64,000 bases of DNA. Source: an uncultured bacterium. Lineage in GTDB: Bacteria > Desulfobacterota_D > UBA1144 > Nemesobacterales > UBA2774. This document shows, piece after piece, positions 42,001 through 45,000 of the stretch. Where the stretch lies: the NCBI GenBank assembly GCA_963705505.1, contig CAVPJU010000010.1, positions 256,001-320,000 of the forward strand. The letters run 5' to 3'. A program made the position numbers. The number at the start of each line of letters is the position of its first letter. Position 1 is the stretch's first letter.

Positions 42001-45000
42001 AGATAAGGACCATGCTTCTTTCTTAAGAGAGATCTCGACACTCGCGGAGAAGCTCGTGATCACGGAAATACCGTCGGAGAGGACTATGAGCGCAGAAGCC
42101 CTTTCAGAGAAAGCCTCAAAAATATTTTCAGGGAGAGATCAGGACGGAGAGCGATTACAAAAAGGCTTTTTCCGAATTGAAGAAACTCAAAGAGCCCGCA
42201 TGCATCGCAGGCTCGCTTTATCTTACGGGAGCTATAAAGGCGCTCCTCGATTCTCGATAAACGATACATTTCTTTTGTCTAAACGCTGATACTGTGCTAG
42301 CCTTTTATCCCACATTTAAAAAGGGACAGATTGAACATGCGGAAAGTCGGAATAGTTCTGGATAAGCTCTACGTCGATCACGACAACGGGTTCGGCCACC
42401 CCGAATCGCAGGAGAGGCTGCTTGCGATAATAGACATGCTCAAACATACGAAGCTCCTCGATGAAGTATCGAAGATAGAGCCGAGGGACGCGACCAAAGA
42501 AGAGATAACCCTCGTCCACACGCCTGATTATTACGATAAGATAGCCTGGACAAAGGGTAAGCCTAAGGTATTCCTCGACGCCGACACATCCACAAGCCCA
42601 GTTTCGTTCGACGCCGCTGTCAGGGCATCGGGCGGTATGCTGTCCGCAATAGACAGCGTGCTCGACGGTGAAGTGGAGAGGGCTTTTCCGCTGGTGAGAC
42701 CTCCGGGCCACCATGCCGAAGCAGACAGGGCAATGGGCTTTTGCCTCTTTAACAACGTCGCGGTGGGCGGGGCATACCTGACTGAGATAAAGGGATTTAA
42801 CCGCGTGCTCATCGTGGACTGGGACCTCCACCACGGAAACGGGACACAGCACATGTTCTACGAGAGTCCCAAGGTGCTATATTTTTCGACACACCAGTAC
42901 CCCTATTACCCGGGAACCGGAGCTACGTCCGAATCGGGGCACGGAGAGGGGGAAGGATATACGGTGAACGTGCCTCTGCCGCCGGGGATGGGAGACAACG
43001 AATATATCAAAATTTTTAACGACATACTCGGCCCCGTAACCGAGCAGTATAAACCCGAATTCATACTCGTTTCAGCGGGCTTCGATACGTTTTACGACGA
43101 CCCCCTCGGGGGAATGAAGGTCACCCCGGAGGGATTCGCGAAGATGACGAGGTTCCTGACGGACGCCGCCGAAAAGCATTGCGGCGGGAAAATTGTCTTT
43201 ATACTCGAAGGGGGCTATAACCTGGACGGTCTCTGGATATCGACGAAGGAAGTCATCGAGGAGCTTCTCGACAAGAAACGCTCGGACTATGCTTCCCCGG
43301 AAGGACCCACGGAGGCCGACCTCATACTGGACAGGGTTAAAAAGGATTACTCCTCTTACTGGGACTTCTAAGCCTTCTTCTTCTCTTTCCTGTAATCCCT
43401 GCCCTCGAGGTAGATCAGCTCACACATCTCGAAAAGACGGGAAGCGATGCGGTCCCCTACCCTCACTTCCAGTATCTCGTCCGAATTGCCGGATTCTTTC
43501 GCGATCTCCCTTGTCACGTAGTTCGTGGTGATGAGCGTCTTCTTCGAGGCGTTATAACGCTTGGATATGAGCTGGTCGAGGATGTTCAGTTCCCATTCGT
43601 TGCTCCTCCCCTTACCGAGCTCGTCGATAACGAGCACCTCGGTCTCTATGAGCGGCATTATGACCTCGTTCTCAGGGGTGCCCTCGGAATAAGCCTGTTT
43701 GAGCTCCGAGAGGAGGTAAAAGAAGTCCTTGAACATGCATTTAACACCGTGATAAAGGGTAAGCTCCGATATGGTCCCCACCGCGAGATGGGTCTTGCCC
43801 AGTCCCGAGGGCCCCATGAGCAAGAACCCCTTTTTCGTCGGGTACTTCTTTACGAACTCCTCCTTCGCGTATTTGAGAGCCATCTGGAGGTGCCTGTTGA
43901 TATGGTTCGGCACGAGACCGGCGTCCACCTGCAACACGTGAGAATATTTGGCCGGTATCGCAGCCATGTTGTAGAGCCTTACGTTCCTCCTGACAACGCC
44001 GCAGGACGGGCACGGAGAAATATAGGAATAGCCCTTCTCGTTCTTTAAAAGCACGTTCCCCGCACCCCCGCATTCCGGGCATCCGAGCACACACCCGCAA
44101 AGTGCCGCCGCCGCATAATTCCCTTTATTCTTTATTACGAACCCCGACCAGTGACAATCGTCACAGCCGGCCGATTCTTTGTTCTTCGTCCTTTTCATGG
44201 GTTGTTTATGAGATTATACACTTTATTCCGTATTTTCTTCCGAGAATCTCGTTCCTGAAAGAAATGAGGCTTTCATCGTAGGCGCTCTTTGTCATGAAAC
44301 GAGCCCTCTCGTTTATCATCTTCTCGGCCTCAAGACTGATCTTCTCCCTCTCTTTTTCAGGCAGTCCGTTGAAAAACTCCTCCAGCGACTCTTCCTCAAG
44401 CAACGAGATTTGAGAAAGATAAGTCTCGCCGCCCTGTTTATCGAGTCCGAGAATTTTTTTTCTGAGTCTTATATAATAATCCCTTATAGACGAATCCTTC
44501 TCGTCATTTATAAAAGATTCGAGCCTCTCCTCTATGTCCCCTTTTACGCCTCCGGGCTTTGACTCTTTATCCCGTCCCGACCGGCCCTTTTTGATTAGGG
44601 GTCCGTATTCTTCGATGCACTTTTCCACATAGCCCGCGCAGTGCCTGAGATTCCTGGGAGAGTCTGTGCCCCTGTTCTTTCCCTCGCTCCTTTCCGCAAA
44701 CGCCCTGTTTATGCCCCTGAGAACGACCTCTTTAGGAATATTCCTCTTTTTCCAGTCCTGAATGAGGCTGTAGTCGATCGAGGAGAGCATAAGCCCCTCC
44801 CCCGCCAGTGTAAGAAAATATGTTTCGATTTCCTTAACGTACTCCGGGACGTGCTCCATTGGTCTTTGTTTTATTCTAATCCATTTCCGCTTAAACGGAA
44901 AGAAGATCCATATAAGCAAGAGGGGCACAGCAATAAAACCGCGCCCCTCATATTCAACCTATTACTGCTTTTTGAACGCATCCACTTCGAGGTATTCACC

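Follow-up and report, generated by a model that had tools for sequence, protein, structure and literature searches.

A DnaD-like and DnaC-type gene pair as the probable helicase loader of Candidatus Dadabacteria, with relatives in several other phyla

The domestication of a dna[CI] helicase-loader gene in Aquificae is one of seven described, and none of 1,426 genomes kept dciA together with a resident dna[CI], for a reason that was called unknown (Brezellec et al. 2016, PMC5109545). Here, we analysed a window of 64,000 nucleotides (the whole stretch of DNA under study) from a Ca. Dadabacteria genome, in which a DnaD-like gene precedes the gene of a DnaC-type ATPase; judged by sequence, this pair probably loads the DNA-unwinding helicase in Dadabacteria. 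A first-pass annotation had taken it for an order-specific capture that displaced DciA. The results speak against a capture confined to the order and give the pair a far wider scope, since the same ATPase clade occurs in Acidobacteriota, Myxococcota, SAR324 and a further deltaproteobacterial phylum; in addition, the ATPase lies at the corresponding locus of the sister order, and clade and partner are resident in other phyla, often together with DciA. We found no description of a DnaD-like/DnaC-type pair in Dadabacteria, Acidobacteria, Myxococcus or Aquifex in a search of the openly accessible literature, and no paper on a DnaD-like partner in Aquificae.

The pair consists of two minus-strand open reading frames separated by 7 nt, and relatives are labelled Ca. 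Dadabacteria. The first gene (44206..44859, minus strand) encodes, from its ATG, a DnaD-like protein of 217 aa, a probable co-loader or adaptor that matches the phage family PHROG_7498 (E 1.6e-7) and is modelled with a mean pLDDT of 84. The second (43368..44198, minus strand) encodes a DnaC-type AAA+ ATPase of 276 aa, a probable helicase loader according to its Pfam, NCBIfam, PHROG and Aquifex DnaC matches; it is found once in the source genome, with a GC3 of 0.73 compared to 0.68-0.72 in four neighbours. In both orders the ATPase locus lies between rpe/metK and folC, and at every locus examined the flanks were housekeeping genes and no transposase-like neighbour was seen, which agrees with the housekeeping setting proposed at first pass. 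Upstream of the pair lies a 12-bp hairpin with a T-rich tail (44920..44949, minus strand), possibly the terminator of an inserted methyltransferase gene, with terminator-like sites in the region being at chance level (4 found versus 3.5 expected). A promoter scan of the region found none.

The ATPase carries the PF01695 AAA+ domain (Pfam IstB_IS21, E 1.9e-18, 67.3 bits, cut-off 24.1) and matches the PHROG 'DnaC-like helicase loader' at an E-value of 5.5e-41. Its best solved relative is Aquifex DnaC (profile E 8.8e-39, fold E 4.3e-12), which ranked first in the fold search, before E. coli DnaC, IstB and DnaI. The NCBIfam matches named at first pass (PRK08116, DnaI and DnaC) were found again, along with PRK06835 and IstB, but none reaches its cut-off, and the IstB score exceeds those of DnaI and DnaC. 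The ATPase does not reach the DnaC equivalog NF005931 (45.7 versus 357 bits) or the DnaI equivalog NF006505 (51.1 versus 228 bits) and is a member of neither, although it would probably act in the same way as both. In the alignment, Walker A (aa 129-136, 43791..43814), Walker B (aa 188-193, 43620..43637) and a C-terminal G-x-D-x-R motif (aa 266-270, 43389..43403) were located, all on the minus strand; D268 and R270 of the last motif, which we take to be sensor II, are invariant (alignment A8), and it aligns with the end of Aquifex DnaC 3ecc. Eight conserved cysteines mark an N-terminal Cys-rich domain (aa 12-66, 44001..44165, minus strand), which probably forms two zinc sites. At least seven N-terminal cysteines occur in 15/15 sequences from the order, 31/33 Myxococcota-labelled and 4/4 SAR324-like sequences, and four to six in most Acidobacteriota and all Aquificota. 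In the ATPases of family f6, found in genomes without DciA, the Walker B glutamate is replaced by glycine, leaving a degenerate enzyme.

The 217-aa protein belongs to a family that numbers 1791 clusters (E<=1e-3). Its N-terminal four-helix DnaD/DnaB_2-like domain (aa 6-90, 44590..44844, minus strand), assigned from PHROG_7498, fold comparison and gp77 of Brevibacillus phage Jimmer, is 37% identical to gp77, which scores 77 bits against the partner family profile. Since 36 of 48 family members match PHROG_7498, the phage 'DnaD-like helicase loader' (best E 7.8e-16), the likeness to DnaD appears firmer, at the level of sequence, than at first pass. Two results count against it. Pfam DnaB_2 (PF07261), previously matched by three of 45 relatives with a best E-value of 2.6e-4, was matched again but by only one of 48 (E 7e-5) and not by the window protein itself. 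Similarly, the N-domain model, formerly at Z 6.5 and 6.1 against 2i5u and 2zc2, now gives Z 6.3 (rmsd 2.6, 69/77 residues) and 5.9, and is still tied with AAA lids (Z 7.1 and 6.8). The C-terminal helical domain (aa 104-210, 44230..44550, minus strand), which the fold comparison scarcely probed, is common to the chromosomal family and finds no match in gp77.

Within the phylum, the ATPase is present in 114 of 120 genomes (98/101 in the order and 16/19 in the sister order, where it occupies the same locus in 7/7 loci), so its reported presence in the sister order stands. The 217-aa gene was again counted in 98/101 order genomes, the same three genomes being without both genes. The two genes adjoin in 97 of 98 genomes, the exception being the rearranged G025, which bears out the earlier 30/30 loci and, with the single copy of each gene, the claim that the pair is resident. 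Identity across the order spans 35% to 93%, not 64-91% as first given. In the sister order, where the 217-aa gene had been scored 0/19, one genome now has a weak match (E 0.003) inside an uninspected 702-aa frame. No DciA above the Pfam cut-off was detected in the 120 genomes, the sole lesser match (E 0.012, in G083) having internal stops, and a profile of 35 DciA sequences from neighbouring phyla found one match (E 0.014) in the 120, inside a 777-aa frame of G066, and reached at best an E-value of 3.8 in the six frames of the source genome. The claim that the phylum has no dciA therefore holds with both profiles. As a control, the Pfam DciA model was positive in 7/14 genomes, as before; E. 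coli, B. subtilis and L. lactis were negative and have DnaB, and the four other negatives are without DnaB. The matches in G083 and G066 were dismissed, as was one in the source genome (E 0.5) that overlaps a presumably SufE/IscU-like region. One full-length DnaB is present. Dadabacteria show the genomic marks of a resident dna[CI] in the sense of Brezellec et al. 2016: PF01695, a clade-wide gene with conserved context, a gene tree in keeping with the host, a place outside mobile elements and no dciA.

The absence of dciA does not extend to the wider clade. The ATPase clade was found in 94/101 Acidobacteriota (25 of these matches were opened, and some of the rest may be prophage copies), in 62/111 Myxococcota-labelled genomes, in SAR324 and in 3/101 genomes of a further deltaproteobacterial phylum, that of G122. 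The DnaD-like partner family, previously unannotated, is present in 101/101 Acidobacteriota and is also resident in Myxococcota and other deltaproteobacterial lineages. DciA and the ATPase occur together in 62/101 Acidobacteriota, and no genome is without both. Among the 111 Myxococcota-labelled genomes, 23 have both, 39 the ATPase only, 48 DciA only and one neither, compared to 17.7 expected without both if the two were independent, although the relatedness of the genomes overstates the significance of this cross-tabulation. Since co-occurrence is frequent and almost no genome (0 and 1, respectively) is without both, the pattern fits interchangeable loaders. The co-occurrence in Acidobacteriota and Myxococcota contradicts the published rule that DciA and dna[CI] never coexist. 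In the phylum of G122, two of the three ATPase carriers are among the six of 101 genomes without DciA, and all four Aquificota genomes are without it. The two genes are unlinked in Acidobacteriota (0/80 and 0/25 loci adjacent) and in 11/30 Myxococcota loci; SAR324 G123, like the sister order, has the ATPase but no partner, and a divergent partner persists in two Acidobacteriota genomes that gave no ATPase match. In the ESM Atlas, unnamed clusters at 0.88-0.90, mostly from Acidobacteriota and Nitrospinota, provide a lead only. Two scans for viral relatives, whose reach is limited to close ones, gave four IMG/VR loci with the ATPase patterns (26-43% identity) and none with an Acidobacteriota partner as query.

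The ATPase tree, with 22 Bacillota, nine phage sequences, E. coli DnaC and others for comparison, placed the order on one branch (99/97) and Acidobacteriota, Dadabacteria, Myxococcota, SAR324 and the G122 lineage on one branch (96/85), on which sequences mostly group by phylum. The phylum as a single clade was not rejected (p-AU 0.5). A further AU test, which constrained Dadabacteria to group with all phage rows (p 0.0003), was not taken as informative, since the constraint also makes the phages a single clade. The pair may have one origin with that of Aquificae, the known domestication being far older and wider than reported, with no additional event; we regard this as plausible but stop short of favouring it. 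Besides the rank of Aquifex DnaC as best solved relative, Aquificota join the clade at 98/97, three of four of their genomes encode a member of this DnaD-like family whose C-terminal end is similar, and the mobile elements that neighbour them in the tree have another gene upstream, which does not match the partner family. However, the two mobile-element ATPases, once added, were sister to Aquificota (92/82), leaving a purely chromosomal clade in only 11% of bootstrap trees, and Aquificota with a phage loader was not rejected (p-AU 0.06 and 0.26). The partner tree is too poorly resolved to place Aquificota or to judge congruence. That the genes were instead captured several times, or passed between phyla, from one pool of phage modules, with the Dadabacteria pair an event of its own as the first-pass annotation proposed, seems unlikely to us. 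The patchy range (3/101 in one phylum), which also fits transfer, a phage domain very near the partner N-domain, the related mobile ATPases and gene neighbourhoods that differ phylum by phylum would agree with it, and Dadabacteria with the phage Jimmer loader was not rejected (p-AU 0.07). Yet no mobile row fell inside the Acidobacteriota-plus-Deltaproteobacteria branch in trees with and without the two mobile-element ATPases, a double Cys cluster is common to Dadabacteria, Myxococcota and SAR324, the chromosomal members share a partner C-terminal domain that is unmatched in the phage protein, and placing Dadabacteria outside the other chromosomal members gave a p-AU of 0.032.

As to function, the ATPase could be an IstB-like or repurposed AAA+ protein and no loader, with DnaB loaded by an undetected DciA or loader-free. 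The IstB model match (E 6e-20), the IstB structures at ranks four to six of the fold search and the degenerate f6 enzyme speak for this, but we consider it very improbable, given the housekeeping flanks without transposase-like neighbours at the loci examined, the single copy, the position of IstB-like rows outside the ATPase clade, a DnaD-like partner in phage gene order and a distribution complementary to DciA. A division of labour is rather doubtful but deserves more weight: DciA, where present, would serve initiation, PriA-dependent fork restart would fall to the pair and chiefly to its DnaD-like protein, and the pair would have taken over initiation only where DciA was lost. The sister order, without the partner, has PriA in 0/14 genomes compared to 5/5 in the order, the pair has long coexisted with DciA, which suggests roles that are not identical, and E. 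coli dnaT directly precedes dnaC. On the other side, the joint loss of partner and PriA is a single event in genomes of about 1 Mb, the partner occurs without PriA in two Aquificaceae genomes, and the reverse holds for SAR324 G123. Such a division would refine the explanation that we prefer and is compatible with it.

Taken together, the identity of the genes by sequence and fold, their fixed residence in the chromosome as single copies, the absence of DciA and one full-length DnaB make it likely that an old, domesticated phage initiator/loader pair now serves the host DnaB, and that DciA was later lost in Dadabacteria. The source would be a phage replication module of a DnaD-type initiator domain and a DnaC-type loader. 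By analogy with DnaC and DnaI, the ATPase may bind DnaB by way of the Cys-rich domain at its N-terminus and use ATP to open or assemble the DnaB ring on single-stranded DNA. The DnaD-like protein may act as an adaptor, bringing the loader to DnaA at the origin and/or to PriA at stalled forks, a step modelled on B. subtilis DnaB/DnaD; the binding of the B. subtilis DnaB tail to the DnaI AAA+ domain is a precedent (PMC13326638). The capture would long predate the order, going back at the latest to the phylum ancestor and probably to an ancestor shared by Acidobacteriota and the former Deltaproteobacteria. The module would then have coexisted with DciA while lineages retained one or both, until Dadabacteria lost DciA and the streamlined sister order additionally lost the DnaD-like gene and PriA. 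The unlinking of the genes elsewhere, ATPases without a partner, partners without an ATPase and the degenerate f6 ATPase in genomes without DciA count against this explanation. So do the patchy range, the unrejected grouping of Dadabacteria with the phage Jimmer loader, the tie between the DnaD fold match and AAA lids, the rarity of Pfam DnaB_2 matches and the NCBIfam scores under their cut-offs.

A broader reading, which we find conceivable without giving it an even chance, is that a single ancient capture produced a two-gene loader across much of the Gram-negative tree (Acidobacteriota, Myxococcota, Dadabacteria, SAR324, some other deltaproteobacteria and perhaps Aquificota), which has long worked beside DciA and with roles split between initiation and restart. 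If so, Dadabacteria would be the end state after DciA loss, the sister order a minimal version free of partner and PriA, and f6 a catalytically degenerate loader. The many genomes with both loaders recast the replacement between DciA and dna[CI] as coexistence and then loss of either gene instead of an abrupt swap, and make the question of incompatibility versus redundancy testable. In addition, an unannotated family found in all 101 Acidobacteriota gains a probable function, and the structurally well-studied Aquifex DnaC a candidate partner so far unnoticed.

Compared to known systems, the pair most resembles Aquifex aeolicus DnaC (PDB 3ECC/3EC2), which is the best profile and fold match, is resident in a genome without DciA but with a homologous DnaD-like gene, and has a Cys-containing N-terminus; the Dadabacteria genes, in contrast, form an operon, two Cys clusters lie at the N-terminus of their ATPase, and close relatives are found alongside DciA. 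B. subtilis DnaB/DnaD and DnaI likewise combine a DnaD/DnaB_2-like protein with a Cys-rich AAA+ loader, whereas Dadabacteria have one short partner with an N-terminal DnaD-like domain and an ATPase that lies outside the Bacillota rows and scores far under the DnaI cut-off. The phage modules of PHROG_7498 and PHROG_50 (phage Jimmer gp77-gp78) contain the same two families, DnaD-like then DnaC-like, but the Dadabacteria pair is chromosomal, fixed and single copy, and the DnaD domain, C-terminal in gp77, is N-terminal in the 217-aa protein and followed by the unmatched helical domain. E. coli dnaT-dnaC also has a small partner gene immediately ahead of a domesticated DnaC, although E. coli DnaC is without the Cys-rich N-terminus and branches elsewhere. 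IS21 IstB shares the PF01695 AAA+ domain, whereas the Dadabacteria ATPase is a single-copy gene with housekeeping flanks, on a separate branch and with no adjacent IstA transposase.

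Two adjacent minus-strand ORFs in the window (C10:256001-320000) encode a 217-aa DnaD-like protein (the partner; 44206-44859) and a 276-aa DnaC-type AAA+ ATPase, a probable helicase loader (43368-44198). The ORFs are separated by 7 nt, each is present as a single copy in the source genome, and the pair is flanked by a methyltransferase gene on one side and by a convergent histone-deacetylase-family gene on the other. An insertion at 44962-48268, found mainly in the source genus, carries methyltransferase and sigma-54 activator genes; most other loci in the order Nemesobacterales are without it, and rpe lies directly before the pair. 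In the source genome, folC (40999-42289) is broken across three frames and rpe (48372-49044) across two, and both are intact in relatives; these breaks are probably assembly indels. Two near-identical stretches, at the ends of contigs C10 (L389:1483-2861) and C2 (L391:442-1836), are probably a repeated mobile element; in each, a gene for a DnaB N-terminal domain precedes a helicase-like gene.

DciA, the usual DnaB loader, was not found over the Pfam cut-off in any of the 120 genomes of the phylum Ca. Dadabacteria. Among 14 controls, seven were positive, and the remainder were E. coli, B. subtilis, L. lactis and four genomes that lack DnaB. Neighbouring phyla supplied 35 DciA sequences for a second profile; leave-one-out recovered 35/35 at E<=5e-4, which is not an independent check since these sequences were first found by Pfam. 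This profile gave nothing credible in the source genome (best E 3.8), and its one match among the 120 genomes (E 0.014, within a 777-aa frame) was not credible. In six Myxococcota-labelled loci dciA lies 3′ of a homologue of the source-genome gene at C6:255740-256963, and in two loci it comes after the two genes preceding that gene; the corresponding slot in the source genome is about 190 bp and holds no such ORF. DnaB was present as one full-length copy in all five genomes tested. These results agree with the first-pass annotation that DciA is absent.

The ATPase contains a PF01695 domain, and its NCBIfam matches (PRK08116, PRK06835, IstB, DnaI and DnaC) were all below cut-off. It was matched by PHROG_50, 'DnaC-like helicase loader' (E 5.5e-41). 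When a 25-sequence ATPase profile was compared with solved structures, Aquifex DnaC ranked first (E 8.8e-39) and E. coli DnaC next (8.7e-25); the predicted model (pLDDT 90.7) ranked Aquifex DnaC, E. coli DnaC and IstB in that order. Walker A, Walker B, R254 and a terminal G-x-D-x-R motif are conserved, as are eight Cys at the N-terminus. In one Dadabacteria family (f6; L048-L051, L449, L450), which is without DciA, the Walker B Glu is replaced by Gly in 6/6 genomes, and the ATPase stops before the terminal G-x-D-x-R motif in 5/5 complete copies. Judging by these sequences, the f6 loader is possibly non-catalytic, which suggests that catalysis can become dispensable. The N-terminus of E. coli DnaC alone is able to load DnaB. 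A divergent second ATPase copy, altered in its C-terminal half, lies beside a lexA-like gene in one genome (G184; L458:2503-3297).

The ATPase is present in 114 of the 120 phylum genomes. Within the order, the partner was found in 98/101 genomes, the three without it being the same three without the ATPase, and the two genes are adjacent in 97 of the 98, as expected from the fixed pair described earlier. The sole order genome with a broken pair, G025 (L449), has an inversion that places rpe and the partner on the opposite strand, 1.7 kb from the ATPase. In the sister order, the ATPase locus is conserved in 7/7 loci, with rpe abutting and no partner between, and a broad partner profile gave only one weak match among 19 genomes. 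The ATPases of these loci (L041-L047), from genomes of ~1 Mb, have lost the first Cys cluster. PriA was found in 0/14 sister-order genomes and in 5/5 genomes of the order.

The partner matched no Pfam or NCBIfam family. PHROG_7498, 'DnaD-like helicase loader', matched it (E 1.6e-7) and 36 of 48 members of its family. Over its first 80 residues the partner shares 37% identity with gp77 of the Brevibacillus phage Jimmer, whose gene directly precedes a DnaC-like gene, and the partner-family profile scored 77 bits against gp77. The N-domain of the partner model matched the DnaD domains 2i5u (Z 6.3) and 2zc2 (Z 5.9), but AAA lids matched it equally well, and Pfam DnaB_2 was matched by only 1/48 family members. 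The DnaD likeness proposed earlier thus rests mainly on the phage family.

Outside the phylum, the partner family comprises 1791 clusters at E<=1e-3, and an Acidobacteriota member has at least 577 relatives. Among 101 Acidobacteriota genomes, the partner was found in 101, the ATPase in 94 and DciA in 74 (69 over cut-off); 62 carry the ATPase with an over-cut-off DciA (60 excluding the unpublished genomes G147 and G172), and none lacks both loaders. Partner and ATPase are unlinked there (linked in 0/80 and 0/25 loci), and the partner (L138-L217) has its own fixed gene context in 47-69 of 80 loci, with neighbours that we take to be coaX-, birA- and rlmD-like. In the phylum of G121 (labelled Myxococcales, n=111), 23 genomes have both loaders, 39 only the ATPase and 48 only DciA; neither was found in 1/111 vs 17.7 expected if independent, and the median DciA -log10 E was 8.6 with the ATPase vs 16.4 without, kin being non-independent in both comparisons. 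The partner directly adjoins the ATPase in 19/30 Myxococcota-labelled loci, and in three the pair sits 3′ of one same gene, presumably gyrB. Two DciA-only Myxococcota-labelled genomes also lack the partner, and in two that carry both loaders the partner is not linked to the ATPase. DciA is present in 95/101 genomes of the phylum of G122 (labelled Deltaproteobacteria; probably Desulfobacterota) and the ATPase in three, two of them without DciA. The SAR324 genome G123 has DciA and the ATPase, and the partner was not found in it. In Aquificota, the partner is present, unlinked, in 3/4 genomes and DciA in 0/4.

Three ATPase trees were built from thinned sets (93 of 131 rows, 86 rows and 65 rows), the latter two from the AAA+ part only, aligned to a Dadabacteria-Myxococcota profile, without f6 and IMG/VR rows and with one or no IstB row. 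Aquificota, Acidobacteriota and deltaproteobacterial lineages formed one chromosomal clade in the 93-row (SH-aLRT 92) and 86-row (98/97) trees. A Persephonella marina plasmid loader beside an integrase (NC_012439.1; L447) nests inside the Aquificota chromosomal clade. Multi-copy matches in the Acidobacteriota genomes G162 and G202 (L454-L457) are integrase-bearing mobile elements that encode a Cys-containing DnaC-like ATPase and, upstream, an initiator-like gene different from the partner. With these rows added, the 65-row tree placed them as sister to Aquificota (92/82) and kept Acidobacteriota and deltaproteobacterial lineages as one branch (96/85); resolution was poorer in a quick tree that combined these rows with a long IstB row. 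In AU tests (50 rows), p was 0.032 for Dadabacteria outside the other chromosomal members, 0.07 for Dadabacteria joined to the Jimmer loader, and 0.06 and 0.26 for Aquificota joined to a phage loader. The trees and AU tests together favour an ATPase capture that predates Dadabacteria. With the ATPase at the same locus in the sister order (7/7), the order-specific domestication proposed by the first-pass annotation is not sustained.

What the analysis shows for the pair is its family, fold, residence and distribution. By analogy with DnaC and DnaI, the Cys-rich domain of the ATPase would grip DnaB and the AAA+ domain would drive its loading. The partner may be an adaptor, as modelled on the B. 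subtilis DnaB-DnaI contact, in which the DnaI AAA+ domain is bound by the DnaB tail according to passages of PMC13326638. In the sister order, partner and PriA were lost together, which hints at a role of the partner in restart. This is a single event, and a strict link is opposed by two Aquificaceae genomes (G335, G337) with the partner and without PriA, and by G123, which has PriA and no partner. Having lost the partner, the first Cys cluster and PriA, the sister order may represent a minimal loading system.

The pair is real, and, as noted earlier, no description of it was found in the literature searched; neither the preprint on DciA diversity (10.1101/2022.01.24.477630) nor PMC11087808 mentions it in the passages covered. 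In the parts of Brezellec et al. 2016 (PMC5109545) covered, seven dna[CI] captures are described, Aquificae among them, and no genome is reported to have dciA plus a resident dna[CI]. The table of that article, which counts at the level of the PF01695 domain, gives at least one such protein in 4/4 Acidobacteria and 9/9 Myxococcales, and dciA in 3/4 and 9/9; its text does not count these genomes among the resident dna[CI] cases. On these results, the pair is best read as a resident DnaD-like/DnaC-type module, widespread and probably old, which is found alongside DciA in some phyla and without it in Dadabacteria.
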